64,000 nt of DNA, from NCBI GenBank assembly GCA_964645795.1, contig CAZYCL010000002.1, positions 80,352 to 144,351 on the forward strand. Direction: 5' to 3'. This DNA comes from an uncultured Planctomycetales bacterium. GTDB taxonomy: Bacteria; Omnitrophota; Gorgyraeia; Gygaellales; Profunditerraquicolaceae. A program made the translations under genes and the position numbers. Below the pieces are notes generated by a model. That model searched no databases. It had not been told where the DNA came from and saw only the letters and a program-made list of their open reading frames with translations. Position 1 is the stretch's first letter. Each line of letters starts with the position of its first letter. Of this stretch, positions 1,360 to 63,701 are shown one piece after another.

Positions 1360-1469
1360 ACCTAAAAAATCAAATAGCGTTAACGGCAGAATCCAAAAGA
1401 CCGAATCAGGCCTGCAGGAGCTTGCCTATAACGCCATTGACCCTTTAACGTTATAAGATTGGTTTAACC

Positions 1470-4170: not shown

Positions 4171-4539
4171 TTATCTTTTACGCGTATCCGATCTATCGGC
4201 TGAGCGCGCCGTATTACCAACGGCGCCGGATCTGTTATGCTTGGCCAGCTCTTCCTTAAGGCTATTGTTTACCAGCTGCTCTTGAAGGAGCGCTTTTTTG
4301 GTCGCCTGATGCGCGGCCCTTTCGGCTGCCAGCTCATCCTCCTTGGCCTTTAGCCTATCGTCAAACTCCTGCCTCTCCTGGCTAAACTTTACCAGCTTCT
4401 CTTCCGCATCAAGCCTGGCAGCCATCTCTTTATCGCGGGCCCTCTTTTGACGCAAGCTGCCGTTACAGGAGTTGATACTGGTGATGAAGAAAATCGCACA
4501 GATGATGCTTAAAATTATCGTGGGGCTATTCTTAGCCAT
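4171..4539 (-). CDS. Small predicted lipoprotein or secreted coiled-coil protein (hypothetical)
   Basis: 122 aa. It has a hydrophobic N-terminus ending ..SINSC, followed by a highly charged heptad-like KE/AR-rich helix. Confidence 0.5.
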   Translation of the reverse strand: MAKNSPTIILSIICAIFFITSINSCNGSLRQKRARDKEMAARLDAEEKLVKFSQERQEFDDRLKAKEDELAAERAAHQATKKALLQEQLVNNSLKEELAKHNRSGAVGNTARSADRSDTRKR

Positions 4540-4580
4540 TATACCCTTGCCGGCCTATTGAAATGGTTTTTAAGCTTGGT

Positions 4581-5225
4581 TTACTTTAGGTAACTGGCGG
4601 CCCCTGCGGAAGGGAGCTCTTCCCCGCCCTTGACCTTGGTGATCTTGGGCATAACCACTATCTCAACCCTGCGGTTTGAATGACGGCCTTCGACCGTATC
4701 ATTGGAGGAGACCGGCCGATATTCGCCGTAACCGATCGCGGATAGGCGTTCCGGGCTTATCCCTCTTTCGTTGACCATATAATGCAATACGCTCAAAGCC
4801 CTGCCGGTGGAAAGCTCCCAGTTGGATTTCCACTTCGAGTGCCTTATCGGCTGGTTATCGGTATGACCTTCGATGCCGACGCTGTAAGAAGAAAGCTCGT
4901 CCTTGAGGATGGAGCTGACTTTATCAAGAATGGGATAACCCTCTTTTTTGATCTTGGCCTTTCCCGAATCAAAAAGCAGGTCGCCTACGACGGTGATCAC
5001 TAAACCCTTCTCCATCATCTGCAGCTTAACCTGGCTGTCGCCTATTTCGGTATTCAGCCTCTCTTCAAGAAGCTTTCTGGCGCGGCTGAGCTCATCAACC
5101 TCGTCTGCCAGCTCCTGTATCTTCTCCAGGTCCGAACGCCTGCCTTTTTGGATAACAAAGGTGCAGCCGCTTAAAAAAACGAATAGAACGACGAAAGCCA
5201 ACCCCTGGAAAAATTTACGATTCAT
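4581..5225 (-). CDS. OmpA/MotB-domain lipoprotein, a peptidoglycan-associated (Pal-like) protein
   Basis: 214 aa. It has a signal peptide with an LSGC lipobox. The C-terminal OmpA-like domain contains GHTDN..G....N..LS..RA and RRVEIVV. Confidence 0.85.
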   Translation of the reverse strand: MNRKFFQGLAFVVLFVFLSGCTFVIQKGRRSDLEKIQELADEVDELSRARKLLEERLNTEIGDSQVKLQMMEKGLVITVVGDLLFDSGKAKIKKEGYPILDKVSSILKDELSSYSVGIEGHTDNQPIRHSKWKSNWELSTGRALSVLHYMVNERGISPERLSAIGYGEYRPVSSNDTVEGRHSNRRVEIVVMPKITKVKGGEELPSAGAASYLK

Positions 5226-5257
5226 GGAAGACCTCCTTTAAGATTTTCCGAAAAATC

Positions 5258-5286
5258 ACTATAACACAAGGCTGAACCATAGTCAA
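5258..5286 (-). promoter_or_regulatory. Candidate sigma70-type promoter for the OmpA-family lipoprotein gene
   Basis: The minus-strand sense reads TTGACT, a 17-bp spacer, then TATAGT. About 20 nt downstream is the Shine-Dalgarno AAAGGAGG, sitting 7 nt before the ATG at 5225. Confidence 0.5.
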
Positions 5287-5335
5287 GAATTTTTCGCTAA
5301 GCACTTTTTATGTCAACTCCTTGCCATGTAGGGAT

Positions 5336-6622
<1,287 letters not shown>

Positions 6623-7861
6623 TTACGGCGTCATGGTAAAGATCTTCTGCGCGATATCCGGGTATTTAGCGACAAACTTCAGCTCGTCGTCTACCAGGGG
6701 CTTCTGGTTATGGACGTTGGCGTAACGCACCAGCTCCAGGATCTTTGCAGCCTGCTCCTCGCTATCAAAGGCCACTTCCAGCTTATCGTAAACATTCCTG
6801 AAGCCCTTGATCCCCGAGTATTCTCCGGCGGTGATCTTGCGGCCGGTCTCGATTATCTCGGGGTCCCCCCTGCCCAGCTCCTCAAAGTCGTAAAGCTCGT
6901 AATTACGCCTGTCCTTCAGGGCCCCGTCGGCGTGTATCCCCGACTCATGGGCGAAGGCGTTTGCGCCTACCCCGGGCTGATTGATGGGAATGGGCACGCC
7001 GAAAGCATACGAAGCGTAAGTGCATACCTTCCACGCTTTTTTAAGGTCGATGCGCTCATCCAGGCGGTAATCTTTCATGCCGCTTCCGTATTTAATGGCC
7101 AATACTACCGATACCAGGTCAGCGTTACCCGCACGCTCCCCCATGCCGTTTATGCAGGTGTTGATGAAGGCATCCTGCCCGCAGTCATTGGCGGCCCTGG
7201 CACCCGCGATGGAGTTAGCCACGACCAGACCCAGATCATTGTGACAATGTATCTCTATCGGTATCTGGACGGCCTCGGCCAGCTTTTTGATCCTTTCGTA
7301 TATGCTGAAAGGCGTGTCAAAGCCCAGCGTATCGCAGTAGCGGATCCTGTCGGCTCCGGCTTCTTTGGCGGCCAGGGAAAACTCAATAAGGTAATCCATG
7401 CGCGTCCTTGAGGCATCTTCGGCGTTTACGCCCAGGGCCTGTGCGCCGGCCTTGCGCGCCTCCTTTACCGCCTCCGCCATCTCGTTGATCACCGAAGCGT
7501 GGTCAAGCTTGCCTTTGAATTTATGCATGATCATCTGGTCGCTGGTGGAGATGGAAAGGTTCAGGTATTTTATATGCGGCACCGACTTGAAAGCGGCCCT
7601 CACGTCTTCCCTGGTAGCGCGGATCCAGCCGCTCAGCCTTATCGGAGACATAGCCCCGGCCTTCACCAGCTCGAGATTGGCGTTTAGATAATTGGTCTCG
7701 TGCCGCGTTACCGGAAAGCCGAACTCGGATTGGAACACCCCGAATTCGTTGAAATAAAGATTGAGCATCGTCTTCTGCAGCTTTGAGAGGCATATGCGCG
7801 AGGTCTGCACGCCGTCCCGGTTAGTCACGTCGATTATATAGATATTGGGCGTCTTCTTCAT
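6623..7861 (-). CDS. HMGL-like (DRE-TIM) synthase of the homocitrate / isopropylmalate / citramalate / Re-citrate synthase family, lacking a LeuA-dimer regulatory domain
   Basis: 412 aa. It has an N-terminal IIDVTNRDGVQT block, the metal-site HCHNDLGLVVANS motif and AHESGIHADG, which together define the LeuA/NifV catalytic barrel. Confidence 0.7.
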   Translation of the reverse strand: MKKTPNIYIIDVTNRDGVQTSRICLSKLQKTMLNLYFNEFGVFQSEFGFPVTRHETNYLNANLELVKAGAMSPIRLSGWIRATREDVRAAFKSVPHIKYLNLSISTSDQMIMHKFKGKLDHASVINEMAEAVKEARKAGAQALGVNAEDASRTRMDYLIEFSLAAKEAGADRIRYCDTLGFDTPFSIYERIKKLAEAVQIPIEIHCHNDLGLVVANSIAGARAANDCGQDAFINTCINGMGERAGNADLVSVVLAIKYGSGMKDYRLDERIDLKKAWKVCTYASYAFGVPIPINQPGVGANAFAHESGIHADGALKDRRNYELYDFEELGRGDPEIIETGRKITAGEYSGIKGFRNVYDKLEVAFDSEEQAAKILELVRYANVHNQKPLVDDELKFVAKYPDIAQKIFTMTP

Positions 7862-36116: not shown

Positions 36117-36157
36117 TTGGGGACGGTTCTGGGACCAGGTCCCAGAACCGTCCCCAA
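36117..36157. repeat. Perfect 41-bp palindrome TTGGGGACGGTTCTGGGACCAGGTCCCAGAACCGTCCCCAA, a member of the GGGGACGGTTC repeat family. It is probably the xerC terminator.
   Basis: It is perfectly self-complementary and lies in the 54-bp gap between the xerC stop (36162) and the waaA start (36106). Confidence 0.8.
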
Positions 36158-40643: not shown

Positions 40644-40679
40644 ATACCGACCGATAGACAGCCTGTGAATATTATCAGC

Positions 40680-40750
40680 TTTAGCGGTTAGCGTATAGCG
40701 GGTAGCGGTTAGAAAAACCTAAACGCTATCCGCTAAACGCTATACGCTCC
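40680..40750. repeat. Inverted pair of (NNTAGCG)x4 heptad arrays separated by AAAAACC, forming a long imperfect hairpin
   Basis: Arm 1 is AGCGgtTAGCGtaTAGCGggTAGCGgtTAG (40683-40712). Arm 2 is its reverse complement with 7-nt periodicity (40719-40748). It lies between the spoVG stop and the aroK start. Confidence 0.7.
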
Positions 40751-40753
40751 TAA

Positions 40754-42420: not shown

Positions 42421-42990
42421 TTATTTCCATAAACCCCGGCGATTCTGCCGGGCCTCCTGATATAACCTTAAGAACAGATCCGCGTATTTTACGTTGGGTG
42501 GATAGGTAAGAAGCGAGGCATAACCCTGTTTCACTATCTCGGCATTGACAAAAGTTCTGTCCTTCAAATACGCATAAGCCAGGAGCCTGCCGTAGTAATC
42601 GCGTTTTTCCACGTCAAACTCTAAAGTAACGTACTTTCCTTCAACGAGTTTGCGCGTAAACTCATAGGACTGCCTTCCCAGGCGCTTGATAACGCTTTTG
42701 TCTTCGCCGCTCCTGCGCGAGTCTTTATCCAGCTTGCTTGAATCATGCATCTCCGGAGTATCTATGCCGATAAGCCGCACGCGAACGCCGTTCTCAAGCT
42801 TAAGCGTATCGCCATCCACTACCCGGATGACCAGGGCGTTGGAATAATCATACGAATCCCCGAAAGGGATGGAGTACTTGATCTCGCCGTTTCCGGAGTG
42901 GACATTCTTAAGTATCTCCTCGCCAAAGGAGTGCCGGGTCCAGAGCAAGGCCAAAAATATCAGGATAATATAACGCATCGCAGATCTCAT
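42421..42990 (-). CDS. Secreted thermonuclease (staphylococcal nuclease / SNase-like)
   Basis: It has VVDGDTLKL....RVRLIGIDTPE and ...YGRLLAYAY. I place the start at the internal Met (MRSAMRYIILIFLALLW signal peptide). The longer track ORF overlaps the DUF3786 gene. Confidence 0.8.
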   Translation of the reverse strand: MRSAMRYIILIFLALLWTRHSFGEEILKNVHSGNGEIKYSIPFGDSYDYSNALVIRVVDGDTLKLENGVRVRLIGIDTPEMHDSSKLDKDSRRSGEDKSVIKRLGRQSYEFTRKLVEGKYVTLEFDVEKRDYYGRLLAYAYLKDRTFVNAEIVKQGYASLLTYPPNVKYADLFLRLYQEARQNRRGLWK

Positions 42991-43003
42991 TGAAGTACCG
43001 TTA

Positions 43004-43555
43004 TTATAATCCGGCCGCAAGCATCTGGGCCAGGATAACAATATCTTCGGTGCAGAAAATATGGGTAATGCTGCGGTCAAAGAGTATATTGGCCTCTGCC
43101 CCAAACTCCTCATCCGCTCCCCAGAGCTTGACCATCGCCGGCACCCCTTCAAGCAGCTCGACGATTATGGCCGCGTCTGCCCCTTCGGCTTTACGCGAAG
43201 AAAATCTTTCCAGGGCCAGAAACAAGCCTGAGGGGTTCCTGCCGAACTTCCTGATCAGCGGCTCGATGCAGCGCCGGCGAAAAGCCGGATAATACCCTTC
43301 TATACCGGAGAGCTCCCGGAAGTTGAGCCACTGGCCGGTGGGCCTGGGCAGGCCTTTGGCCTTCTGTATCAGATAATGCAACAGGATTATGGCCGTAAAC
43401 TCCTTGGCCGGGACATTGCAGGAAAGCGAGATTATGCTGCGCGCCTTGGGATCAATGCTGTAATTATCAGCCAAAAACCGCACCGACGTAAAGCTTGCGC
43501 CTTTAAAGCTTGAAAGCTCGTCCCAGGCCTTGTTGACCGCAACCTCATAGCCCAT
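43004..43555 (-). CDS. DUF3786-like hypothetical protein
   Basis: 183 aa with no catalytic motif recognised. The assignment is weak. Confidence 0.35.
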   Translation of the reverse strand: MGYEVAVNKAWDELSSFKGASFTSVRFLADNYSIDPKARSIISLSCNVPAKEFTAIILLHYLIQKAKGLPRPTGQWLNFRELSGIEGYYPAFRRRCIEPLIRKFGRNPSGLFLALERFSSRKAEGADAAIIVELLEGVPAMVKLWGADEEFGAEANILFDRSITHIFCTEDIVILAQMLAAGL

Positions 43556-43656
43556 ATGTATTTCCCGACTGATGCGGATAGAGCTGCATATAATATATAA
43601 TTTATTATATGCGAATTGCCGGGATAAACAAGTAAATAAAAGGCTAGGTCAACAAA

Positions 43657-43766
43657 GGGGACGGTTCTCAGGCTGCAGTGTTGGGGACGGTTCTCAGGCT
43701 GCAGTGTTGGGGACGGTTCTCAGGCTGCAGTGTTGGGGACGGTTCTCTTAAGAGAACCGTCCCCAA
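43657..43766. repeat. Tandem array of three 26-bp units (GGGGACGGTTCTCAGGCTGCAGTGTT) ending in the palindrome TTGGGGACGGTTCTCTTAAGAGAACCGTCCCCAA
   Basis: The three units are exact direct repeats at 43657, 43683 and 43709. The palindrome at 43733-43766 is the same element as at 51557 and 36117. The array sits in the divergent intergenic region at the only strand switch in the window. Confidence 0.9.
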
Positions 43767-43840
43767 CAATAGAAGATATTTAAACCTCTCTCCTTTATTT
43801 TCATTAGATTAAGGCGCGCTTTTCAATTATAATGTAGGCT

Positions 43841-45718
43841 ATGATCTACGACCGCTTCCAGCAGGAAGCCATTGACCACATTAACCACGACTTCTCAGTC
43901 ATTGTCTCGGCTCCCACCGGAGCGGGAAAGACCGCCATAGCCGAACACGTCATCACTACTTCTCTTGAGAAAAACATCGGGGTAATCTACACCGCGCCCA
44001 TCAAGGCGCTCTCCAACCAGAAGTTCCGCGACTTCCAGGGCCAATATACGGATAATATCGGCATACTGACCGGGGATGTCTCGATAAACGCTTCGGCGCC
44101 GGTACTGATCATGACCACCGAGATATTCCGCAACAAAATACTGGATGAACCCGAAAGCCTTGCGCGCTACTCCTGGGCGATATTCGATGAGATCCATTAT
44201 ATCGATAACCCCGAGCGCGGCACGGTATGGGAAGAATCCCTCATCTTTCTTCCGGCGCACATGAAGCTGCTGGGCCTGTCCGCTACTATCCCCAATATTA
44301 AACAATTTGCCGCCTGGATCGAATCAATACACAATAAGCCCGTAAAAGTAGTCATTGAGGATAAGCGGCCGGTGCCGCTGCATTTCCGTTTCCAGCACCG
44401 CGACCAGATCGTTGATAATGTCGGCGCCCTAAAAAGGTCTTACGGCGGCAAACCTAACAAGCTGAGTACCCTTATCAATTACCTGCGCCAGAACGATGGC
44501 CTGGCCTGTATCTACTTTGTCTTCGGCCGCAGGCGCGCAGAAGAGCTGGCTTATGACCTTTACGGTTATCAGCTATTGAACGGAAAAGAAAAACAGGAGA
44601 TCTCCGAATTATACAGCTCTTTATGCGAACGCTTTGATCTAAAGGGAGACCGCACGGCGGCAGAAATGCTGCCCCTGATCCAAAGAGGCATTGCCTATCA
44701 CCATGCCGGGATGCTTCCTACCTTAAAGGAAGTAGTAGAACGCCTCTTTACCAGCCGCCTTATAAAGCTGATATTTACCACCGAGACCTTTGCCTTAGGG
44801 ATTAATATGCCCAGCCGCTCCGTTGCCTTTGATGACTTAAGAAAGTTTTACGGCACCTACGTGCGCAACCTCAAGACCCGCGATTTTTACCAGATGGCCG
44901 GGCGCGCCGGACGGCGCGGCATAGATGAAGAAGGTTTTGTCTACTGCCGCATAAACCTGGAAAGGACAAAGCTTGAAGAGGTCAAGAGGATCATATATGG
45001 GGCGCCCGAGCAGGTAAAAAGCCAGCTGAATACCTCTTACGCCACCATACTTAATCTGTATGAAAAACATAAAGAAGAGCTCTTCAAGATTTACCCCCTC
45101 TCCCTCCACTACTTCCAATCCCGCCCTAATGAGCGCAGAGAAGCGCTCAGGCTCTTTGAGGCCAAGCTCAAGCTCCTCAAGGACTGGAATTATATAAATA
45201 ATCAAGCACTTACCCAAAAAGGAATGTTTGCCAAGACCGTTTACGGTTACGAATTGATGCTATCGGAACTTTATGACCAGAATATCCTGGAGCAGTTGGA
45301 CGAATTCGGGCTGGGGATACTGGCAGCTTCGGTGGTATTTGAACCCAGGAAAAATCAGCATGCTGCAAGCCTCTCCAAGAACGCCAAAAGGATAAGGCAT
45401 GCCTGCGAAGACATATTCGCGGATATCAAAAGGAAAGAGATGCGCTACCGGATTTATCCGGTATCCAAGATGCCTTATTTTAATTTAAGCAATGCAATGG
45501 AGGCCTGGCTGCGGGGCACAAACTTTGAAAAGGTAGTGCAGATAACCGATACTGACGAAGGAGAGATCGTTCGTTACTTCAGGATGAGCGTGCAGATACT
45601 GCGTGAGATAAACGAAGCCAAAGTTGCCTCACCTATCTTAAAGGATAAGATCAAGGAAACTATCCGCGTGATCAACCGCGATGTAGTGGACGCTGAAAAA
45701 CAGCTTCGGGAAGGCTAA
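43841..45718 (+). CDS. Ski2-like superfamily 2 (DEAD/DEAH-box) RNA/DNA helicase
   Basis: 625 aa. It has motif I APTGAGKT, motif II DEIH and motif VI QMAGRAGRRG, with a Ski2/HelY-like C-terminal region. A TATAAT at 43828-43833 lies only 7 nt before the ATG, so the transcript may be leaderless. Confidence 0.85.
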   Translation: MIYDRFQQEAIDHINHDFSVIVSAPTGAGKTAIAEHVITTSLEKNIGVIYTAPIKALSNQKFRDFQGQYTDNIGILTGDVSINASAPVLIMTTEIFRNKILDEPESLARYSWAIFDEIHYIDNPERGTVWEESLIFLPAHMKLLGLSATIPNIKQFAAWIESIHNKPVKVVIEDKRPVPLHFRFQHRDQIVDNVGALKRSYGGKPNKLSTLINYLRQNDGLACIYFVFGRRRAEELAYDLYGYQLLNGKEKQEISELYSSLCERFDLKGDRTAAEMLPLIQRGIAYHHAGMLPTLKEVVERLFTSRLIKLIFTTETFALGINMPSRSVAFDDLRKFYGTYVRNLKTRDFYQMAGRAGRRGIDEEGFVYCRINLERTKLEEVKRIIYGAPEQVKSQLNTSYATILNLYEKHKEELFKIYPLSLHYFQSRPNERREALRLFEAKLKLLKDWNYINNQALTQKGMFAKTVYGYELMLSELYDQNILEQLDEFGLGILAASVVFEPRKNQHAASLSKNAKRIRHACEDIFADIKRKEMRYRIYPVSKMPYFNLSNAMEAWLRGTNFEKVVQITDTDEGEIVRYFRMSVQILREINEAKVASPILKDKIKETIRVINRDVVDAEKQLREG

Positions 45719-45726
45719 TATGTTTT

Positions 45727-45790
45727 GTTACGAGTTACGTGTTAGCGTGTTGCGTATTTAACCCGAAGCACGTAACCCGAAACACGTAAC
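45727..45790. repeat. GTTACG/CGTAAC-rich imperfect palindromic element, family member A
   Basis: GTTACGAGTTACGTGTTAGCG....CACGTAACCCGAAACACGTAAC shares the core TTACGTGTTAGC with the reverse complement of the element at 54627-54692. Confidence 0.6.
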
Positions 45791-45830
45791 AAAAAAAGAC
45801 GACTCCTTTTTACGGGAGCCGTCTTTTTTA
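45791..45830. terminator. Bidirectional rho-independent terminator between the convergent helicase gene and the giant gene
   Basis: The sequence aaaaaaAGACGACTCCtttttacGGGAGCCGTCTttttttta forms a GC-rich stem with A and T tracts on both sides. Confidence 0.7.
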
Positions 45831-45848
45831 TGAGCAAACAATTGAAGT

Positions 45849-48800
45849 TTAGAGCGAATCTACGATGACCAGCGCCTCTTTAAGGGCGTTATCCACTGGC
45901 TGCACAGCCTCTTCCTGAAGCCTACAGATACGCATTAAACAGCTCATTAACTCTTCCTGATGACTAACCAGCTGCTTTTTGTGATAGCAGGCAGCGATCA
46001 GCTCTTTGACCCTCTCACCGGAAGGGGCAATACCGCGCTCTACCATCAGGTTTATATCTTTTAACTCCTTATCTACGTTAATTGAGGCTAACCCCGCAGG
46101 CCTGGGCAGGGCAAAGCTTAAGCCGCAGAAACCTCCCATGGGCTTGCAGGTCATGGGAAGGGCGCGGAAGTCAATTCCTCCCAACTTTTCTTCGGGGGAA
46201 TTGATGCCGCCGGGGTTAAGGGGAGAACTAGACTCCTCTTCTTGCTGCCTCTGGATACCCGTGCGAACTTTGTTTTCGCTTCCAGAGGAAGATTCTCCTT
46301 CCTCAAGCACGATTGCCCCATTCAATCCTTGCAATCTTCCTCGCCAAAAGACCTGCCTGTCACTGTTGAGGGAAACAATTATATCGTAAGACTTCTTATC
46401 ATAATTAATCTCATTGTTTATTTTAGGAGGCCGCGCCTTAAATTCTACCCTTTCCTGCTTTCCGGAGATCACCTCTTCTATGGCACGGATAATTTCATTT
46501 TTAAGTAATGGCTTGCCGGCATCATCTACTATGTGCCACCGCTTGTAATAGATATCATCTAAAACCTCAGCTGCTTGCTGCACCGGCGAGCCAGAAACTG
46601 AATTTTCAATCGCGGGGATATGGATCAACCCTTTACCGGAATAAATGCTCATTCCGGTTTCTGAGGCCTCATTTAAACCATTCACCAACTCTATAGCTTC
46701 TTTTATCTGAGATTCAGTGACCCTGAATTCTTTCTTTAGCTCTTCGATATGCAAAACTGAACCAGGAGTTGCTCCTATAAGTTTATCTGTCAACGCTGCC
46801 CTGCCGCGCGAAGAATTACCCTGCACCGGAGAGCTGGAACGCGCCAGGATCCTTAGACTGTTTCGGTCGATCCGGTTAAGAAACTCTCGAAATTTCTTAA
46901 TTGTACTTTCAGGAAAATTAAGCTTATGCATCTCATCGAATACTACATAACCATCATCCCCAAGCTCCATCAAAGGGAATCTTATATTATCTGACGCCCT
47001 CCCCAGATAAAGTATGTACCCGGCAGCCAGTATCTCCAAACGGCTTACTTCTGATGAACCCTTATTTTTGTACTCATCAGGAATACCTACATAAGGATTA
47101 TTAACGACTTCCCTGATGCCCTTCTGTGCCTCAGGGGTAAGCATGTAATATTTTAATACTCCACTCTTATCTTTTCTTAATAACCACATGATGCTTTGCA
47201 GGATCTCAGAATACCTCAGCCAGGATTTTTCTGAGTAAATCAAACCTGACTTTCTGGAGCGGGCCCAAGAAACCCCAATTATCTTCAAAGCCCTTTCTTG
47301 TTCTTCTAAAGTAAGAAAACCCCAATTTTCATTAATGGACTTTATCTCTTCACAGGAAACGGTGATCTCAATCCGTTCTTTAAAATTAGCCTCCAGCTTC
47401 CTCAAGTCTTTCTTCACCTTGTTATAGATTATAGGGCTAGAGGTATTTATAACCGGCGAGCTTTGGCGCGCCTGTGTGTTTGTTCCCTGCACCGGCGAGC
47501 TGGACACTTCTTCATAGTTTGTTAAATCTTCTGTTCTCGTGTTTCTCCAAACGGGATCATGCCAGGTCCTGACAGCCTCAAATTCTACTTTCGTTTTATT
47601 GCAAAGGAGCAAATTTGCAGCTACTTGGCGATACTGGCGATTATTGACGAAATCCCCTCCCGAATCATCTGACCTGTAATAATCCGCCGTTTCCAGAAAA
47701 TCATCTTTGAGCAACTTAATATCGTTTTTATTAAGCTCTATGATCTTATTTTGCTTTCTTAATTCCTTGGAGAGCTCTAGTAAAGCAGAAATAAGGTGCG
47801 GGATATCGTCACGGAATGTAAAATCGTTTCGATTCTTAACCAACTCCCTGTAAAAAGAAAACAGCTTGCCTATCAACTCGCTTGTTTCCGGAATATCAAT
47901 CAGGGATGCACGAAGCAGATAAAACGCTTCTAAAACCTCTCCCATGCGGCGATGATCGTCAAAGCCGTAGCGCTCGCTGTAACTGGGATAATGTCTCATA
48001 TCCAGATATTTATCAATCAGCTGCGATACAGCGGTTAGTTTCTCCTTTTTGGAAGCAGCAACATTATCTGCTATGCTTATGATCTCTCTAAGACTCATAT
48101 CCTTGGCGCTATCGATAGGCGAACTTTGGCGCGGCTTGTCCTTTGTATCCTGCTGCGATTCGCTGGAGCCGGATTCATCATCATCCGAATAGAGGGAAGA
48201 GTACAGATCCTCATCGTCCGTTTCTTCTCTTGGCTCCTCTGCGCTATCATCATCCTCCTGCCTGCCTTTACTGACCTCGTACTCTTCTAGCTCACCTGCG
48301 CTTTTTCTTATAGGGCTGGAAGAGATCTCGGTCTTTATGGTGTCCCAATCGCTAATAATCCCTGCCAGCCTTGTCTTGGCTTCTTGGATAACGGACTGCC
48401 CTGCAATATCATCCTTGGAAAGCTTCAAGAATGAAGCGTTAGCCTCAACGGAAGATATCAGCCTTTTAGCATCAAGGGTATTAAAATTATCCGAGATTAT
48501 ATAGTCGATCTCGTAAAGGCTGTCATCGTTGATCACCAGGCCTTCTTTTTGTTTAGGCTTATACTCGATTATCATGTCCTGAAGCACCATACCGGCCAGA
48601 TTGTCCTTAAAGGGGAGGTTCTTTATCCTTTTCATCAACCCGTCAAGCCTGCCGGCAACAGCTTCAATACCTTTAACCGGAGAACTGCCCGCGAGCATCC
48701 CCACTATATTTGAGGCGTTACCGACCTTCTTAAACTCATTTCTATCCAGCTTCACCGTCTTCCAGTCTTTCGCCTGGGCTTTAATGATCTCTTTTGGATT

Positions 48801-51236
48801 AGAGCTGATGAACAGGCAGTTTTGAGGACCGAGATCTTTTCTGTTTCCCAACAACATGGCTGCGGTGTGATTACCTATTGTTTCTACTCCGCTGGTAATA
48901 ACGATATAACGCTCGTTGCTGGCTGAGGCTTCGTTGAGATACTTTCCCGCAGGGGCCTGCGTATCTATTGCCTCCACAAAATAAGCGGGTAGAAAGGCCT
49001 TCTCAGAGACAGGGACAACTATTACCTTGATCAAAGACTCTTTCACTTCAGGCATAAGCGACTTAAATCCGGATAAAAGAGGACTCAGGTCTTTATTTTT
49101 GTTATAATCATCGACCAAGGCCGCTATTGTCTCCTCTGTAACTATGGGGCTGGAGGCGGCCGCCTTGATGGCCTCTTGGGCCAGACGCTCCTGCATATCG
49201 GTATCCCACCAAAAAGCTCCTATTTTAACGCCGGGGCCGCCGCTGTATTCGATATAGATAGCTGAGGTGTAACTTATGTTTAAAATGCTTGGGGCCAGGC
49301 TTCGGATGACCCTGTCAAGTTGAACGGAAGTATTTCTGTCGGACGAGGCTTTCTGGCGGGCCTTTAGAATATCATCCAATATGCCTTTGACAAAACCAGG
49401 GATATCCTTATCAGCGATCTTTGATCTGATATATCCCTGGATGATGCCGGCCATATAATCATAATTACCACGAGCATCTTTCAGCGCAGCCTGGATCGCC
49501 TTGCGGGCCGAGGCGAAATCCATATCCTTGCTTAAACTTAAAGGACTGGAAGAGATAATATTTTTGACTTCCGGCATGGCATTGCCGTTCCAGCTTATAA
49601 TAAAAGCATCCGTAGTATTGGATTCTTCGGGATCGTAATTGTTCACATGGATGCTATTGGGGCTATAGCTTATAGTAAAAGGAAGGCGCCTTCTGTCTTT
49701 AATTCTGGTGGCATCGAACATGCTGGCTTTCTGCGTTAATATACTTTTGCCTTTATTGGCCTCCTCCAGGTATAGCGCGCTGACCAGCGAATTGCCTCCC
49801 GCATTAACCGCAAAACCCCGCGTTATCAACTCCTGCCTGAGCAGATCATCAAACATCCGCGCCTTACGCACAAACTCCGGGCCGGCAATGGGGCTGCTGG
49901 AATCGTCATCATCCCACCAAACATCCTCATGGTCCGATTCGTCTTCGCTTCTGTCCGGCGCTTCAGGCTCCGGGATCACCCCATCTTCGGGATTGATATT
50001 CGGGAACTTAGGCTCTTCATTGTTTTCTCCCTCGGTATTAGAAGGACGAAAACCGAGAGGGCTGGAACCGATCTTTACGCTTGCCAGCGGGTTTCCCGCC
50101 GTAGCGGGCACAGAAAGATGAACGAGCCCGGTATTAGCGGCAGGCGGGACCAACGCTGCCTTGCCGCTAAAAACATTGAAGATGCTGATGGGGCTGGAAA
50201 AAGACATGTTCTTGCCGGTAAAATCTGCGCCGCCTGAAAAGTAACTCCTGATAGATGCCCCGGTAAGAGTGCTGACAGGGGTCTTAAGATTGTATTCTCC
50301 CTTGTTAAAAGAATCCTGGTATTGTTTAAAGTACTCTGTTTTCGACCAGCTTTGAGTTGAAGTAAGATCGGCCAAGTTCTGGCTATTAATATAGGAGGAG
50401 TACGTGCCGCCCTTGCCGTAGAACCTGGATTTGAACCAACGGGCCAGGATCAGAGAGTAGTAGACCTGTCTTAGCTTAGCATAAGACCTGGAGTTGTTTA
50501 CCTCTTTAGTCAGCTGGGGAATGATGAGCTCGCGGATGAGCCGGGATGAGTATTCATTGAGCTCTTTCTGCCTGGGATCATTGAACGAATAGACTGCCGA
50601 GTCCTTCAGATGGTCCTGTTCGAGCATTACCCTTAAGTTTGCTTTGTAGATATACGCGGAGTTTTCTGATTCACGGATGATTATCTCACCCGGCACGATC
50701 CAGGGCCGGGTGAGCGTAGGGATGGAGACGTTCTCCGTGCCAAAGAGCTCAGCTGCTTTCTTATAGAGCTTATCCCAGTAGAGCTTTCCGTTAGGAGTTT
50801 GTGGCGAGGTAAGACGCGCGGTATCTTTTTTAAGCTTGAGGTCTGCCCCTAACAGGATCTTTCCCACATCGGTGCGCGCCAGAAGACCGGAGATAATATT
50901 ATCTTCTGAGTCAGGCCTGAGATTCACCCAGAAGTTATCATCGCTTAAACTAACGCCTATAAAAAAGTATTTCAGGAGCTCTTGGCCGGAAGCCTCAATA
51001 GAGGCGTCCTTAGGCTGCTTAAGATCTCCTTTATCTAAAAGCAGGTTTATACTGTTCGAAGGCAGGTCATAGGAGAAGTATCTTAGGTGCGGCAGGCGGA
51101 ACTTTTCTACGCTTAAACGCGAGCCTAGCACTCCCATATGGGAGGCAAGATTCAGGTCTACGGCTACCTGGGCAAAGCCAAGTTGAGTGAAAGAAAAGAT
51201 GAAGACTAGCATTAGCGATACTATCTTCTTTGCCAT
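45849..51236 (-). CDS. Giant secreted protein of unknown function, about 1795 aa, with at least 13 copies of an S-S-P-[I/V/L] motif and poly-acidic tracts
   Basis: It is the longest ORF in the window. I place the start at the ATG at 51234-51236 (MAKKIVSLMLVFIFSFTQLGFAQ signal peptide), with the Shine-Dalgarno GGAGGG 6 nt upstream. The track's 51329 start has no RBS. No known domain signature was recognised. Confidence 0.8.
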   Translation of the reverse strand: MAKKIVSLMLVFIFSFTQLGFAQVAVDLNLASHMGVLGSRLSVEKFRLPHLRYFSYDLPSNSINLLLDKGDLKQPKDASIEASGQELLKYFFIGVSLSDDNFWVNLRPDSEDNIISGLLARTDVGKILLGADLKLKKDTARLTSPQTPNGKLYWDKLYKKAAELFGTENVSIPTLTRPWIVPGEIIIRESENSAYIYKANLRVMLEQDHLKDSAVYSFNDPRQKELNEYSSRLIRELIIPQLTKEVNNSRSYAKLRQVYYSLILARWFKSRFYGKGGTYSSYINSQNLADLTSTQSWSKTEYFKQYQDSFNKGEYNLKTPVSTLTGASIRSYFSGGADFTGKNMSFSSPISIFNVFSGKAALVPPAANTGLVHLSVPATAGNPLASVKIGSSPLGFRPSNTEGENNEEPKFPNINPEDGVIPEPEAPDRSEDESDHEDVWWDDDDSSSPIAGPEFVRKARMFDDLLRQELITRGFAVNAGGNSLVSALYLEEANKGKSILTQKASMFDATRIKDRRRLPFTISYSPNSIHVNNYDPEESNTTDAFIISWNGNAMPEVKNIISSSPLSLSKDMDFASARKAIQAALKDARGNYDYMAGIIQGYIRSKIADKDIPGFVKGILDDILKARQKASSDRNTSVQLDRVIRSLAPSILNISYTSAIYIEYSGGPGVKIGAFWWDTDMQERLAQEAIKAAASSPIVTEETIAALVDDYNKNKDLSPLLSGFKSLMPEVKESLIKVIVVPVSEKAFLPAYFVEAIDTQAPAGKYLNEASASNERYIVITSGVETIGNHTAAMLLGNRKDLGPQNCLFISSNPKEIIKAQAKDWKTVKLDRNEFKKVGNASNIVGMLAGSSPVKGIEAVAGRLDGLMKRIKNLPFKDNLAGMVLQDMIIEYKPKQKEGLVINDDSLYEIDYIISDNFNTLDAKRLISSVEANASFLKLSKDDIAGQSVIQEAKTRLAGIISDWDTIKTEISSSPIRKSAGELEEYEVSKGRQEDDDSAEEPREETDDEDLYSSLYSDDDESGSSESQQDTKDKPRQSSPIDSAKDMSLREIISIADNVAASKKEKLTAVSQLIDKYLDMRHYPSYSERYGFDDHRRMGEVLEAFYLLRASLIDIPETSELIGKLFSFYRELVKNRNDFTFRDDIPHLISALLELSKELRKQNKIIELNKNDIKLLKDDFLETADYYRSDDSGGDFVNNRQYRQVAANLLLCNKTKVEFEAVRTWHDPVWRNTRTEDLTNYEEVSSSPVQGTNTQARQSSPVINTSSPIIYNKVKKDLRKLEANFKERIEITVSCEEIKSINENWGFLTLEEQERALKIIGVSWARSRKSGLIYSEKSWLRYSEILQSIMWLLRKDKSGVLKYYMLTPEAQKGIREVVNNPYVGIPDEYKNKGSSEVSRLEILAAGYILYLGRASDNIRFPLMELGDDGYVVFDEMHKLNFPESTIKKFREFLNRIDRNSLRILARSSSPVQGNSSRGRAALTDKLIGATPGSVLHIEELKKEFRVTESQIKEAIELVNGLNEASETGMSIYSGKGLIHIPAIENSVSGSPVQQAAEVLDDIYYKRWHIVDDAGKPLLKNEIIRAIEEVISGKQERVEFKARPPKINNEINYDKKSYDIIVSLNSDRQVFWRGRLQGLNGAIVLEEGESSSGSENKVRTGIQRQQEEESSSPLNPGGINSPEEKLGGIDFRALPMTCKPMGGFCGLSFALPRPAGLASINVDKELKDINLMVERGIAPSGERVKELIAACYHKKQLVSHQEELMSCLMRICRLQEEAVQPVDNALKEALVIVDSL

Positions 51237-51294
51237 CTCAGACCCTCCATTTAATAAATCTTTCGCAAACTGTTTAACAATCAAAGACAAAAAA

Positions 51295-51339
51295 GGGAAA
51301 GAAATTGTCAGCAAAGGAAACCGTGGCAATTTCCTTCCC
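51295..51339 (-). promoter_or_regulatory. 13-bp stem hairpin (GGGAAAGAAATTG...CAATTTCCTTCCC) in the presumed 5' UTR of the giant gene
   Basis: The inverted repeat has one mismatch and a 19-nt loop. It lies 59-103 nt upstream of the start codon and just downstream of a 200-bp AT-rich island. Confidence 0.4.
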
Positions 51340-51556
51340 TTTAATGATACGAAACTAATATTATATAAAATTTAACATATATATCGCCTTTGTCAAGGCT
51401 GGAAAACGATTCTTGGCAGGAGATTTAGCGTAGAATGCATAATATGTTGGCATCCAATCAGTTACAGACTAAACAAAGTTTATATAAATATCAAAAATTT
51501 AAATATTTGAGAAATAAAATGAGAAATAAAAGGTGCCTGTTCTAAGGTTTCAGTGT

Positions 51557-51589
51557 TGGGGACGGTTCTCTTAAGAGAACCGTCCCCAA
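51557..51589. repeat. Palindrome TTGGGGACGGTTCTCTTAAGAGAACCGTCCCCAA (GGGGACGGTTC family), a probable terminator of the PGI-like gene
   Basis: It abuts the stop codon at 51591. It is preceded by CAGTGTT, which is the same junction as in the 43657 array. Confidence 0.8.
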
Positions 51590-51590
51590 T

Positions 51591-53681
51591 TTAGAAGGAT
51601 GCCTTGAGCAAAGATAAGCTTTGCGCAGTATCTGGCAATCTTAAGAAAACTCCTAAACCGCCTGCTTCCTGGCGTAGCTCGGTAAGGGCTTTAAATGAAG
51701 CTTCGGCAAAATAATCCCTGACCATATGCGAAGGTACGCCGTCTAAATATCCTTTGGCAAAACCTACTGCCGGATATGCATAGCCGAAGTCTTCAGGGAC
51801 AAAGGAAATAATTAAAGGAAGGAACCTTTGAGGCTTGGCAAGCACCTGCTGGTAACTGATGTGCTGGTCGCTGGTCCCTTGCATCACCCACTCCTCTCCC
51901 TTTCTTACCAGGTAGTCCCTTAGGCTATAGAACTTATCTGCCTCAAGATAAATAAACGGGATAAGCTTGCGGCCGGATTCACGGGTGATCATCTTTAGCT
52001 TGGTTACAAGCGAAACCAATTCCTTTTTGCCTTTAATGAGCTTTAAGGATTTAAGTTTATCGATATTTGACTGCACGGCTGCTTTCCCGGCCTGCTGCTT
52101 AATAAACGCCTCGGCCTCATCCACGGCTTGGGGCCTTGCGTTACGGGCTTCCTGAAGGGCTTTCAATTTTTTTTCAAGCAATCCTTTGCCCAGCTCAACG
52201 TATGGCTGGCGCAGGAAAAGATTCTGCTGGATGATCCTGGTAGCAGGATTAGCGGGGTCGTTTAAATCCACTGCCTCTGCCTTAAGGCCGGCTTTGCTAA
52301 GCGCGCGAGCAATAAGGCGCGTGCCTACGGTATTGGTCATGCCGTAGAAAGTACTGAACAACCTTGCAAGAAGCATTGCCAGCTCCTGTTTGGCGAGGCC
52401 CTTGAAATCATCGAGCTCGATATTAAAAACATTGGCAGCCTTAATGCTTCCTGCGGCCTTTATCCTGCTTAGGTTTATCATTAGCCTATTGGCCTTTTTG
52501 ACATAGCGCTGTTTTTGGCTGGGCCAGTCTTTTTCCCTGACAGCGATAAGATTTATGAAGCCGTCCTGCCAGATGCTCTCGTTGAAATTCTGCTCGATGG
52601 ATTTGCCGAACCAAAATAGATAATCGGGTAAAAGCAGCGCTATATCAGTTACTCCTTCATCGAGCATTTTGTTTCCCAGAATCACGCCCAGATGCTCTCC
52701 CCGGCGGATATCGGATATTGCCTGCCTTCGGCACTGCCAGTAAGCCGAAGCATCCAGATCGTAATAGGCCAGAAAGGTCATCATGTGCAGGTCCGCGGTC
52801 CAGCGGCCGCCTACGTTATCGAACATCGCCCCAAATCCAGGGGCATCATCGCCAAACTCCCTGTCTAAACCTGAATTCCTGATAAAAGCCGAAAGCCTTG
52901 AGGCCTGCGGCCTGTCGGTAGTCTCAAAGAACATATTCCCTAGCACGACAGCCAGTATCTGCCGCGTCTTTTCAACGGTTATGCTTATGCCGCATCGGGC
53001 GGCGGCATCTTTGACTTTTGCTACACTAAAACCCCTGAACAACTCCTCACTCTTGCGCTCGACTCCGTCAATAAAATTTATCTCATGCAGAAGGTCCAGT
53101 ACGGTCTCGGCGAACCTTTTACCGTCCACATCCATAACATATGCCACCTTCTCAAGCAGGAGCGCGAATATCTGGACAAATATAAGCATGGTTTCATCGG
53201 TTGAGCCGGATTTGGAGCTGGGGATAACTACGACCTGGTCCCATCCTATGCCAAGGCGCCTGACCTCATCTTCCATCGAACGGCGGTAGTCTTTGCCTAA
53301 CTCGTACTCACCGGTGATCTTTACCGAACCGCCATCCAGTCTCTCGAATGCCGAAGCGATCCCCTGAAATGGAGTATGTTGGCCGCCGATACCGGGCTTT
53401 ATAACATACCTTATCGGCCTGCCTATACGCTGCTGGCGCCGCCGGAAAAACTCTTTCATCCTGCGCACCCCGCTTAGGAATATCTCCTGGCCGCCGTCTG
53501 CGTAATAACCCTGATTGCCGCTGAAAGCGTGGGAGCCGTCAATGGCCGCACCCTCTGCCACCCCGTAGCCTGACTGGAGGTAGCCGCCGCTTAAGAATGT
53601 TGCCGCGGTATCCTTGTTACCCGCAGCGTATAGGGGGGCCGTAAGCTTCTCTCTGATGACCTGTGCCTGCTGTTTTTCCAT
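51591..53681 (-). CDS. Divergent glucose-6-phosphate isomerase (PGI/SIS superfamily) like protein with an extra C-terminal region
   Basis: 696 aa. It has the PGI-like motifs IKPGIGGQHTPFQG (GIGGS-like) and VVVIPSSKSGSTDETM (SKSGxTxET-like). It is about 150-200 aa longer than canonical PGIs. Confidence 0.5.
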   Translation of the reverse strand: MEKQQAQVIREKLTAPLYAAGNKDTAATFLSGGYLQSGYGVAEGAAIDGSHAFSGNQGYYADGGQEIFLSGVRRMKEFFRRRQQRIGRPIRYVIKPGIGGQHTPFQGIASAFERLDGGSVKITGEYELGKDYRRSMEDEVRRLGIGWDQVVVIPSSKSGSTDETMLIFVQIFALLLEKVAYVMDVDGKRFAETVLDLLHEINFIDGVERKSEELFRGFSVAKVKDAAARCGISITVEKTRQILAVVLGNMFFETTDRPQASRLSAFIRNSGLDREFGDDAPGFGAMFDNVGGRWTADLHMMTFLAYYDLDASAYWQCRRQAISDIRRGEHLGVILGNKMLDEGVTDIALLLPDYLFWFGKSIEQNFNESIWQDGFINLIAVREKDWPSQKQRYVKKANRLMINLSRIKAAGSIKAANVFNIELDDFKGLAKQELAMLLARLFSTFYGMTNTVGTRLIARALSKAGLKAEAVDLNDPANPATRIIQQNLFLRQPYVELGKGLLEKKLKALQEARNARPQAVDEAEAFIKQQAGKAAVQSNIDKLKSLKLIKGKKELVSLVTKLKMITRESGRKLIPFIYLEADKFYSLRDYLVRKGEEWVMQGTSDQHISYQQVLAKPQRFLPLIISFVPEDFGYAYPAVGFAKGYLDGVPSHMVRDYFAEASFKALTELRQEAGGLGVFLRLPDTAQSLSLLKASF

Positions 53682-54626: not shown

Positions 54627-54692
54627 GTTGTTGCGTGTTACGCGTTGTGTGTTACGAGCTAACACGTAACCCGTAACGCCAAACACGTAGCA
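54627..54692. repeat. GTTACG/CGTAAC-rich imperfect palindromic element, family member B
   Basis: GTTGTTGCGTGTTACGCGTTGTGTGTTACGAGCTAACACGTAACCCGTAACGCCAAACACGTAGC lies between the YjbQ stop and the Macro-NUDIX start. Confidence 0.6.
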
Positions 54693-62439: not shown

Positions 62440-62729
62440 TACTTCTTCATCCAGGGCATTAAATGAGGCCACGACTTACGGAGCCCGAAGGGCGAGGTAA
62501 GTCGTTGGGCCGAATTTACGCCGAGCCTGCTCAAAAAATTTATATCAAATTTTTTGAGCGCTTAGGCTAGGCGCTACTTCTTCATCCAGGGCATTAAATG
62601 AGGCCACGACTTACGGAGCCCGAAGGGCGAGGTAAGTCGTTGGGCCGAATTTACGCCGAGCCTGCTCAAAAAATTTATATCAAATTTTTTGAGCGCTTAG
62701 GCTAGGCGCTACTTCTTCATCCAGGGCAT
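62440..62729. repeat. 135-bp direct tandem repeat (2 full copies plus a 20-bp partial third) duplicating the last 7 codons of ilvC together with two downstream hairpins
   Basis: The unit boundaries at 62440, 62575 and 62710 all begin TACTTCTTCATCCAGGGCAT. Each unit contains the stem-loop GGCCACGACTTAC..GTAAGTCGTTGGGCC and the AT-rich hairpin GCTCAAAAAATTTATATCAAATTTTTTGAGC (62529-62559 and 62664-62694). Confidence 0.85.
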
Positions 62730-63701
62730 CATCTCCCTTAACTGCCTTCCCACCTTCTCGATCTGGTGCTCATCGCCTTCTTTAAGCAAGCGGTCAAAGT
62801 TCTTGCGGCCTTCCTCATTCTCTTTTATCCACTCCTTGGCAAATTTACCCTTGGTTATTTCTTTGAGCATCTTCTTCATCTCTTTGCGGGTCTTCGCGGT
62901 AATAATCCTCTTGCCGCGGGTAAGGTCGCCGTAGCAGGCGGTATTGGATACCCTGCGCCTCATGCCTGATATTCCGTACTCCTGGATAAGGTCAGTGATG
63001 AGCTTTAGCTCATGCAAGACTTCAAAATAAGCTATCTCCGGCTGATACCCTGCCTCCACCAATGTATCGAATCCGGCGATTATCAACTCGCTGACGCCTC
63101 CGCAGAGCACCGCCTGCTCGCCAAATAGATCGGTCTCGGTCTCTTCGTTAAAGGTAGTCTCGATCACGCCGGCCTTGGTGGCGCCGATTGCCTTGGCATA
63201 AGCCAGGCCGATCTGCTTGGCGCTACCGGAAGCATCCTGAAATACAGCCAGGAGGCTTGGCACGCCTTTACCTTCTTCGTACATGCGCCTTACTAATGCC
63301 CCCGGGCCTTTGGGAGCGACCATGAATACGTCGACCTTCTTGGGCGGCTTGATCTGCTTGAAGCGAATGTTGAAACCGTGAGAGAAACAAAGCGCCTTGC
63401 CCTTCTTAAGGTTCGGCTTTATCGCCTCATTATAAACCTTGGCCTGGACATGGTCTTGGGTGAGTATCTGGATGATGTCGGCCTTCTCTGCTACCTCGGC
63501 CGCCGGCATCGGGCTGAAACCGTCTTTTTTGGCCTGTTCGTAATTCGGGGTCCCTTGCATTTCGGAAACAATAACATTGCATCCGGAATCACGCAGGCAT
63601 AGCGCCTGTCCGCGGCCCTGTATGCCGTAACCGATAATGCCGATGGTCTTTCCTTTTAATAAATTCAAATCCGCGTCATTTTCGTAGTAAACCTTGATCA
63701 T
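62709..63701 (-). CDS. ilvC: Ketol-acid reductoisomerase
   Basis: 330 aa with [20 protein letters not shown] and a typical class-I KARI C-terminal knot domain. Confidence 0.96.

Follow-up and report, generated by a model that had tools for sequence, protein, structure and literature searches.

The 64-kb window analysed here, that is, the whole 64,000-bp stretch taken from contig CAZYCL010000002.1 of an uncultured Omnitrophota bacterium, carries a cluster of tandem and inverted repeats between a gene encoding a DUF3786 protein and a gene encoding a Ski2-like helicase, and this cluster is the subject of the present analysis. The two genes are divergently transcribed, so that the cluster lies between two gene starts and upstream of both neighbours. 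The helicase was found to be 75-79% identical to hundreds of Candidatus Omnitrophota proteins, and the Omnitrophota loci compared were syntenic with the window (loci from other assemblies are given below by their L numbers). The place had been described in the initial annotation as the only strand-switch region; it is indeed the sole divergent switch, but a convergent one is present at 45718-45849. No tRNA or tmRNA gene was detected in the window.

Tandem Repeats Finder (TRF) reported a 26-bp period at 43657-43747, with 3.5 copies, 100% matches and a score of 182 (consensus GGGGACGGTTCTCAGGCTGCAGTGTT). Each 26-bp unit consists of a 13-nt core (GGGGACGGTTCTC) and a 13-nt spacer (AGGCTGCAGTGTT). 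Four direct cores start at 43657, 43683, 43709 and 43735, with the spacer between them, and a single inverted core follows after a TTAA centre, giving the cluster an architecture of >>>><. The array runs into a perfect palindrome whose two arms (43731-43749 and 43750-43768, 19 nt each) are 100% complementary and leave no loop. The initial annotation, which had recognised a 26-bp tandem array fused to a palindrome, was therefore borne out, the palindrome being slightly longer than the 34 bp given there, and we agree with its proposal that the perfect identity of the units reflects a recent expansion. Folding, which had been suggested as a check, yielded a 17-bp hairpin on either strand, with z-scores of -6.4 and -4.3 for the region, and the nearby AT-rich near-palindrome proved to be real (arms 43586-43598 and 43600-43612). 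A 31-bp stretch of the palindrome was identical in another Omnitrophota metagenome-assembled genome (MAG; L053:181-211). An independent assembly (L001, GCA_020047475.1) contained the identical array with equal copy number, at 99.96% identity over 7.3 kb with 3 single-nucleotide polymorphisms (SNPs). Three Logan contigs of the same strain (L002-L004) broke exactly at the palindrome, starting at window position 43745 or 43769, the usual behaviour of assemblers at multi-copy repeats. The coordinates of all features are collected in the table.

Table. Features of the repeat cluster, its surroundings and the related loci discussed in the text
Sequence	Feature	Coordinates	Strand	Basis or remarks
Window	Three identical 26-bp units, core GGGGACGGTTCTC + spacer AGGCTGCAGTGTT	43657..43734	+	TRF period 26; direct-repeat family D1
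Window	Fourth direct core = palindrome left arm	43735..43747	+	Exact core match
Window	Inverted core = palindrome right arm	43752..43764	-	Exact minus-strand core match
Window	Perfect 38-bp palindrome TGTTGGGGACGGTTCTCTT/AAGAGAACCGTCCCCAACA, two facing cores, no gene between	43731..43768		Inverted repeat I1
Window	AT-rich near-palindrome, TATAAT on both strands	43586..43612		Inverted repeat I8, 13 nt, 92% complementary
Window	About 225 bp of lineage-specific extra DNA, holding the AT-rich palindrome and the repeat cluster	43556..43784		Absent from six orthologous spacers
Window	DUF3786 gene	43004..43555	-	Pfam PF12654, E 1.4e-37
Window	Ski2-like helicase gene, domains DEAD + Helicase_C + DSHCT	43841..45718	+	Pfam; proteins 75-79% identical in Omnitrophota
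Window	Helicase promoter-like site TAGATT-N17-TATAAT	43805..43833	+	Orthologous to relatives' TAGATA-N17-TATAAT, 10/12 score; alignment by eye
Window	Ancestral DUF3786 promoter-like site TTGAAA-N18-GAAAAT	43797..43826	-	Promoter scan; orthologous to relatives' TTGATT-N16-TATCAT/TAAAAT
Window	Second family copy: degenerate 26-nt unit (51532-51557), then the same 34-bp palindrome (51556-51589)	51532..51589
Window	Third family copy: 41-bp perfect palindrome TTGGGGACGGTTCTGGGACC-A-GGTCCCAGAACCGTCCCCAA, longer inner stem, between xerC-like gene and kdtA	36117..36157
L012	Transposase gene	934-1722		Palindromes at 792-823 on one side and 1743-1774 on the other
L060	Transposase gene	1645-2391		Palindromes at 1541-1573 on one side and 2428-2460 on the other
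L006	Transposase gene	4679-5479		Six tandem cores on one side, four on the other, facing inward
L131	Loop-borne core	~2830-2860
L132	Loop-borne core	~2930-2960
L134	Loop-borne core	~1405-1430
L137	Loop-borne cores	~5855-5890, ~6770-6805
L138	Loop-borne core	~5925-5955

The comparison with related loci revealed that the cluster is not an original part of this intergenic region. In six loci belonging to at least four related Omnitrophota genomes (L123-L128), the divergent pair was kept, but its spacer was only 53-70 bp long and free of repeats, and only the part of the window at about 43786-43840 could be aligned to it. A similar situation was seen at the third family copy, as the spacer between the xerC-like gene and kdtA in L128 measured 6 bp and lacked the repeat. 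Such presence and absence at orthologous sites is the pattern that insertions produce. The cluster is part of an insertion of about 225 bp into an ancestral divergent promoter region of about 60 bp, and the parts of the inserted segment other than the cores had no match in any other DNA compared.

The relatives also show what the promoter region looks like without the segment. On their plus strand, TAGATA-N17-TATAAT ends 6-8 nt before the helicase ATG; on their minus strand, the distance between the end of TTGATT-N16-TATCAT/TAAAAT and the called DUF3786 ATG ranges from about 6 nt in L128 to about 19 nt in L125, and these two divergent promoter-like sites overlap within about 60 bp. In the window, the TATAAT noted in the initial annotation was confirmed at 43828-43833, 7 nt upstream of the helicase ATG (43841), and the leaderless helicase transcript proposed there is supported by the conservation of the site in the relatives. 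Both genes may thus have been leaderless, or nearly so, in the ancestral state. The insertion would have left the helicase promoter intact, and some 240 nt, including the repeat cluster, now separate the old DUF3786 promoter-like site from the start codon of that gene. DUF3786 might therefore be expressed at present with a hairpin-containing leader of about 240 nt, or the AT-rich element might act as a new proximal promoter; TTGTTT-N16-TATAAT can be read on the minus strand of that element, but it stayed below the threshold of the promoter scan.

The core is not confined to the cluster. When the window was searched at up to 2 mismatches, 11 matches were obtained against 1.4 expected, a number reached in 0 of 100 shuffles, and exact cores were present at three loci (the focal cluster, 36117-36157 and 51556-51589). 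Of the seven perfect hairpins in the window whose stems reach 10 bp or more, three carry the core. The unit preceding the palindrome at 51556 is about 77% identical to the array unit and exactly 26 nt long, which indicates that the layout of core, spacer, core and inverted core is older than the recent triplication. This copy sits 1 nt past the stop codon of a minus-strand gene (51591-53681). GTAG did not adjoin the core at any of the three window copies.

A collection holding one genome per species was then scanned for an exact inverted pair of cores (GGGGACGGTTCT-N2-14-AGAACCGTCCCC), and matches were obtained in at least 117 genome stretches. These came from Lachnospiraceae and other Clostridia (including the isolates Oribacterium sp. 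NK2B42 and strains AC2029 and NE2001), from Bacteroidales and Prevotellaceae MAGs, from Micropruina of the Actinomycetota (including an isolate) and from at least 12 Omnitrophota MAGs, with single matches in other phyla. Their outer stems and loops were palindromic yet lineage-specific. In one Omnitrophota MAG, 22 of the 38 long perfect hairpins carried the core; the figures were 12 of 16 for Oribacterium and 14 of 16 for RUG12082, and all of these fractions are biased upwards by the choice of loci with at least one core copy. In 100 classifiable cases the palindromes lay a median of about 22 bp past stop codons; 64 were in co-directional spacers, 27 in convergent and 9 in divergent ones, and convergent spacers make up 12% of spacers overall. 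The inverted pair was found in none of 2.9 million viral contigs, a metagenome scan with flank plus core returned one chance match in an apparently unrelated contig and no strain-level copy-number data, and a literature search for the core sequence retrieved unrelated primers only.

Head-to-tail arrays that have a period of 20-26 bp and are combined with inverted copies were found to recur in unrelated lineages: in L006 (six copies, and arrays of four), L014 (4+4) and L048 (2+9), as well as in L027, L039, L045, L080 and L087. Analogous arrays were also present in the isolate Micropruina glycogenica JCM 10248. Within arrays, 1.2% of core positions and 8.1% of spacer positions varied, a comparison biased by the use of the core to find the units. 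In Oribacterium sp. NK2B42 (L012, L023, L050, L058) the core was extended outward by TTATCCACC / GGTGGATAA, and this extension fits the DnaA-box consensus TT[AT]TNCACA at 8 of 9 positions, which could be a coincidence.

An all-against-all comparison of the open reading frames (ORFs) near the repeats initially gave generic families only (ABC transporters, response regulators, helicases). Among the families present at three loci, however, one ORF family of about 250 aa from three high-copy genomes matched Pfam Y1_Tnp (IS200-like; E 1e-16). Its best NCBIfam match was REP_Tyr_transpos, the model for transposases associated with repetitive extragenic palindromic (REP) sequences, or RAYTs; it scored up to 88 bits, where the cut-off is 80, and exceeded the IS200 model by far. 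H60-V61-H62 (the HUH motif) and Y119 were invariant in the family, and the L012 protein gave weak HTH_3 and HTH_23 matches in its C-terminus; a search of PDB sequences with the transposase gave no match. More than 5,000 family members were present in the protein collection, in some sources under the name 'REP element-mobilizing transposase RayT'. Contigs of only about 0.8-1.5 kb carried many of these genes (among P0121-P0240), as expected if repeats flank the genes.

In all three initial genomes, the transposase gene was bordered by the repeat on both sides (table). Seven further members were compared, from AC2029 (two assemblies), Butyrivibrio proteoclasticus, Maledivibacter, Acetoanaerobium and two JGI Clostridia. 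The core GGGACGGTTCT was found within about 310 bp of the transposase gene at all 10 Clostridial loci (L006, L012, L060, L129-L132, L134, L137, L138), and on both sides of it at 9 of them, facing inward in most. Both copies had the same orientation in L132, and in L138 exact copies were upstream only, the downstream copy being degenerate. At five loci (L131, L132, L134, L137, L138) a single, non-palindromic core stood beside the transposase gene, from which it is clear that the association is no by-product of ubiquitous terminators. Cores of this kind sometimes occupied a hairpin loop closed by a stem of only 5-9 bp, as in TGCACCAAA-GGGGACGGTTCT-TTTTGGTGCA, and this placement suggests that the core may be recognised as single-stranded DNA.

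Genes of a comparable type have been described before. Di Nocera et al. (2013; PMC3733652) reported RAYT-like genes flanked by terminal inverted repeats (TIRs) instead of GTAG REPs, introduced the names TIRYT for the proteins and TIRtron for the units, and noted that many TIRs share GGGGWSAS (a motif also given in PMC6006769) and that TIR repeats can form moderately abundant families as dimers or clusters. Most TIRYTs were subsequently placed in subclass 2.1 of the Y1 HuH superfamily, which consists of long proteins with a C-terminal HTH or DnaA_C-like domain and occurs in 14.9% of strains (Quentin et al., 2018; PMC6006769). The term TIRYT appeared only in these two papers in the literature searched, and the taxa concerned here lie outside the coverage of the RepRanger paper. 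Both a Y1_Tnp catalytic core and a C-terminal HTH-type extension were found in the present family, a putative member of subclass 2.1. The TIRtron arrangement, with the same repeat as inverted ends around a TIRYT gene, was likewise found in other genomes, all Clostridia. The DnaA-box-like extension in Oribacterium may be set beside the DnaA_C-like domain of subclass 2.1.

Distant Y1 homologues in Sporomusa and Legionella were found to share another end, GGG(G)TCAGGCC, common to both phyla, and this end fits GGGGWSAS exactly. It is present as an inverted pair (GGGGTCAGGCC) at L135:1420 and 2389 on a Sporomusa termitida plasmid, and as GGAGGGTCAGGCC upstream of L136:1501 on a Legionella adelaidensis plasmid. 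Leads towards an Omnitrophota TIRYT came to nothing: a weak tblastn match in L082 lies inside a 609-aa ORF, and the two JGI contigs that encode the family members P0158 (L137) and P0164 (L138) proved to be Clostridia-like.

We consider it probable, from these data, that the cluster represents five copies of a REP-like repeat that is the TIR set of Y1 (HUH) transposases of the TIRYT / subclass 2.1 type, relatives of the RAYTs. It is most likely selfish repeat DNA rather than a dedicated regulatory site. The full element would consist of inward cores on either side of a transposase gene (core> gene <core), and the dispersed palindromes would be two such ends back to back without the gene, that is, miniature non-autonomous derivatives. 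The element that entered the focal locus may already have had another core, lying one 26-nt unit upstream, like the degenerate form at 51532-51589, and the 26-nt unit would recently have been amplified to three perfect copies by replication slippage or transposase-mediated processing. IS200/IS605 and RAYT enzymes act via single-stranded hairpin intermediates. A cognate Y1 transposase would similarly mobilise single-stranded hairpin DNA at replication forks, as in IS200/IS605 and REP-RAYT systems, and such a TIRYT presumably exists, or recently existed, in this Omnitrophota genome. By analogy with the ends of Tn7 and Mu, the arrays flanking the L006 gene raise the possibility that several cores at each end serve as binding sites.

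A bolder extension of this interpretation, which is possible but which we would sooner expect to fail than to hold, is that GGGACGGTTCT is the sequence-specific docking site of one TIRYT lineage, kept near-unchanged across Clostridia, Actinomycetota, Bacteroidota and Omnitrophota. The arrays, with a spacing of about two helical turns, would then be multi-site ends bound by the C-terminal HTH/DnaA_C-like domain, and the palindromes would be actively mobilised mini-elements, partly co-opted by Omnitrophota as gene-end hairpins.

Several observations weigh against the assignment to a TIRYT system. We know of no TIRYT that has been experimentally shown to bind or move these repeats. The transposase links come from Clostridia only, and hidden Markov models built from 3 and 120 members detected no Y1 transposase gene in the window or in Omnitrophota loci totalling about 280 kb. 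A target-site duplication or target motif could not be defined, TTAGG-like words being present on both sides of some copies. The core (GGGGACGG) fits GGGGWSAS at 7 of 8 positions, with G for A at position 7; variants such as GGGGACAG and GGGGACAC were seen in hairpins of Omnitrophota and Lachnospiraceae. Classical REP families seldom contain head-to-tail arrays. The 12-mer was constant by design of the search, and the exact-core query inflates the apparent conservation between lineages and partly that within arrays. Finally, no REP-like sequence was detected beside subclass 2.1 genes in the survey of Quentin et al. (PMC6006769).

Among the other explanations, an ordinary gene-end hairpin, serving as a terminator or mRNA stabiliser, with its left arm expanded by slipped-strand mispairing and its nearness to transposases incidental because hairpins of this sort are ubiquitous, is in our judgement unlikely. 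Perfect units do fit slippage, and the position of the palindromes shortly past stop codons, together with their excess in convergent spacers, is what such hairpins would show; A-tract / hairpin / T-tract-like flanks were seen in one Omnitrophota MAG, and the spoVG-aroK spacer holds a hairpin in every genome examined, with differing sequences. At the focal locus, however, there is no upstream gene to terminate, and the terminator scan returned no site in 43400-43950. No T-tail was present on either strand there or on the transcribed strand of any of the three window copies, the T-rich side at 36117 and 51556 being on the wrong strand. An exact 12-mer common to several phyla would also be unexpected for a purely structural element. 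The core stood near 10 of 10 transposase genes, including as single non-hairpin cores and inward arrays, and direct arrays, which are unable to fold into hairpins, keep the core nonetheless. An artefact of assembly, with a repeat collapsed or invented at a contig join, is barely credible: the Logan contigs do break at the palindrome, but L001 spans the region with the same array, its SNPs lying elsewhere, the array of about 110 bp is shorter than typical reads, and analogous arrays exist in isolate genomes.

The initial annotation had offered three functional readings of the array, namely protein binding, a REP/BIME-like element and a small RNA locus. Iteron-like operators specific to this locus and controlling the divergent DUF3786 and helicase promoters would be in keeping with the sole divergent promoter region, the regular 26-bp spacing and the identical units, but we regard this as very unlikely. 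No conserved operator or iteron array was found at the orthologous promoter, since the segment is absent from all six related loci, which keep the gene pair and the promoter core; moreover, the core is also found behind unrelated genes in the window and at hundreds of places elsewhere, and no regulator gene is adjacent. Protein binding may accordingly hold only in the form of binding by a transposase. In the ToxI arrays of ToxIN systems, a strong hairpin comes after tandem repeats. This layout would be shared by a locus for a small RNA or repeat RNA that starts in the AT-rich element and ends at the hairpin, for instance a protein sponge or a type III antitoxin array of the ToxI kind, and the folding z-scores and the AT-rich promoter-like sequence nearby agree with such a locus. 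We nevertheless find it extremely unlikely: no Rfam family reached its gathering threshold over the whole window (permissive E-values around the array gave spurious miRNA-hairpin matches only), a terminator tail is lacking, the neighbours are DUF3786 and helicase genes with no ToxN-like gene, and the core is a genome-wide, cross-phylum DNA repeat whose low folding energy is due to the palindrome itself. The small RNA locus was thus not upheld. The REP/BIME-like reading fared better, as the core is dispersed in the window and in many genomes, mostly past stop codons, and lies beside a RAYT-like Y1 gene in Clostridia; it is not a classical REP, having no GTAG, perfect palindromes and a head-to-tail array.

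A number of known elements were considered and set aside. A CRISPR array was ruled out by the 13-nt 'spacers', which are identical to one another. The core contains CGTC, and CGTC-tagged REPs were ruled out as well, for these have 8-9-bp stems, an unpaired tag and no transposase (PMC3733652). Integron attC sites, Tn3-type inverted repeats, parS, DnaA boxes, CIRCE, DNA uptake sequences, KOPS/Chi and tmRNA or tRNA mimicry misfit in order, length, copy number or sequence.

Other repeats and hairpins were encountered in the same genomes. A second repeat family in the window comprises long imperfect intergenic hairpins at 40678-40750, 45720-45795 and 54628-54692, reported by TRF as 7/14-bp arrays and built from 7-nt periodic words (TTAGCGG/TAGCGTA..., TGTTACG/CGTAACA...). 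The first of these fills the spoVG-aroK spacer, where relatives have a GGGGACGGTTCT hairpin. This spacer was occupied by a hairpin of differing sequence in every Omnitrophota genome examined, many of the stems starting with GGGGAC: the exact core with different loops in L094:425-453 and L021:4607-4642, nested AGGGACGGTTCT...GGGGACAC... hairpins in L123 (~4520-4610), L124 and L127 (~7365-7445), GGGACTGTCCC in L128 (~7110-7180), and the heptad hairpin in the window (40644-40753). About 12 tandem copies of TGTTTTTC lie directly 3' of the xerC-like gene in L021:50-140, the position of the 36117 palindrome of the window. Between the convergent helicase and 1826-aa genes, a bidirectional terminator-like hairpin, AAAAAAAGACGACTCC-TTTTTAC-GGGAGCCGTCTTTTTT, was found at 45786-45830, indicating that the genome uses canonical T-tailed terminators elsewhere. 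A perfect 135-bp x 2.1 tandem duplication at 62440-62729 (TRF score 580), either recent or an assembly issue, includes the last ~21 nt of the gene at 62709-63701 and, downstream of it, a hairpin, GCTCAAAAAATTT-ATATC-AAATTTTTTGAGC, which is present twice.

With regard to nearby genes, the mechanical ORF of the SNase-domain gene (42421-43152) starts at TTG and overlaps DUF3786 by 149 bp; the gene is called shorter (185 aa) in L001, so its true start is probably further downstream. The minus-strand ORFs at 45849-51329 (1826 aa) and 51591-53681 (696 aa) had no Pfam match at E<=0.001, and relatives carry large S8-peptidase / FG-GAP / Big-domain proteins in their place.

The striking repeat in this promoter region is therefore no evidence for a dedicated regulatory or small-RNA system; most likely selfish DNA was inserted, with the incidental effect that about 225 bp were placed between DUF3786 and the leaderless promoter of its ancestral state. 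Of wider interest than the focal locus is the directly testable 11-12-nt core that is shared across phyla and tied to TIRYT genes. TIRYT / subclass 2.1 Y1 proteins are common (PMC6006769), yet they are without known substrate or function, and a short exact core tied to their genes at every locus examined provides a concrete oligonucleotide for assays of binding and cleavage. Its copy number is high in several phyla, the little-known Omnitrophota among them, and the repeats explain many assembly breaks in these genomes. Were the docking-site proposal true, the core would be the first defined DNA substrate for subclass 2.1 Y1 HuH proteins and an unusual REP-like repeat with a sequence conserved across phyla.

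Compared with known systems, the repeats resemble the TIRs of TIRYTs in their GGGG start, in flanking ~250-aa Y1_Tnp genes with a C-terminal HTH-like extension by the same core, in their intergenic occurrence as single copies, inverted dimers and clusters, and in the conservation of the core across phyla. They differ in the longer core (11-12 nt, GGGACGGTTCT), in that most copies are perfect back-to-back palindromes at high copy number, in the head-to-tail arrays of up to 9 units, and in belonging to a family previously unreported in Omnitrophota, with no transposase gene found in the window. The REP, BIME and REPIN sequences of E. coli and Pseudomonas are likewise short extragenic palindromes, mostly downstream of genes and clustered in places, with a Y1 HUH transposase gene flanked by repeats, and assemblies break at both kinds of repeat. 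The present repeats, however, have no GTAG or CGTC tag and their stems are perfect instead of imperfect; BIMEs alternate in orientation whereas the array here is direct, and classical REPs are species-specific whereas the core here is common to several phyla. Gene-less derivatives of autonomous elements also consist of two ends only and are dispersed in intergenic DNA, but they measure 70-300 bp and depend on a DDE enzyme, in contrast to the 30-60 bp, the presumed Y1 HUH enzyme and the lack of a detected target-site duplication here.

The stable G+C-rich hairpin a few bases past stop codons, seen in most family members, recalls Rho-independent terminators; the three window copies differ from these by having no T-tail, and the focal copy by lying upstream of both genes. 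Several directly repeated binding sites are found at the transposon ends of Tn7 (TnsB sites) and Mu (L1-L3/R1-R3). The direct repeats of about 20 bp facing inward at each end, as in L006, may be said to work like these ends and no more, the chemistry and family of the transposases being unrelated and the binding of the core by the TIRYT HTH domain putative. On balance, the cluster is best filed as the record of a new phylum, the Omnitrophota, for a known and barely studied class of transposase-associated repeats.

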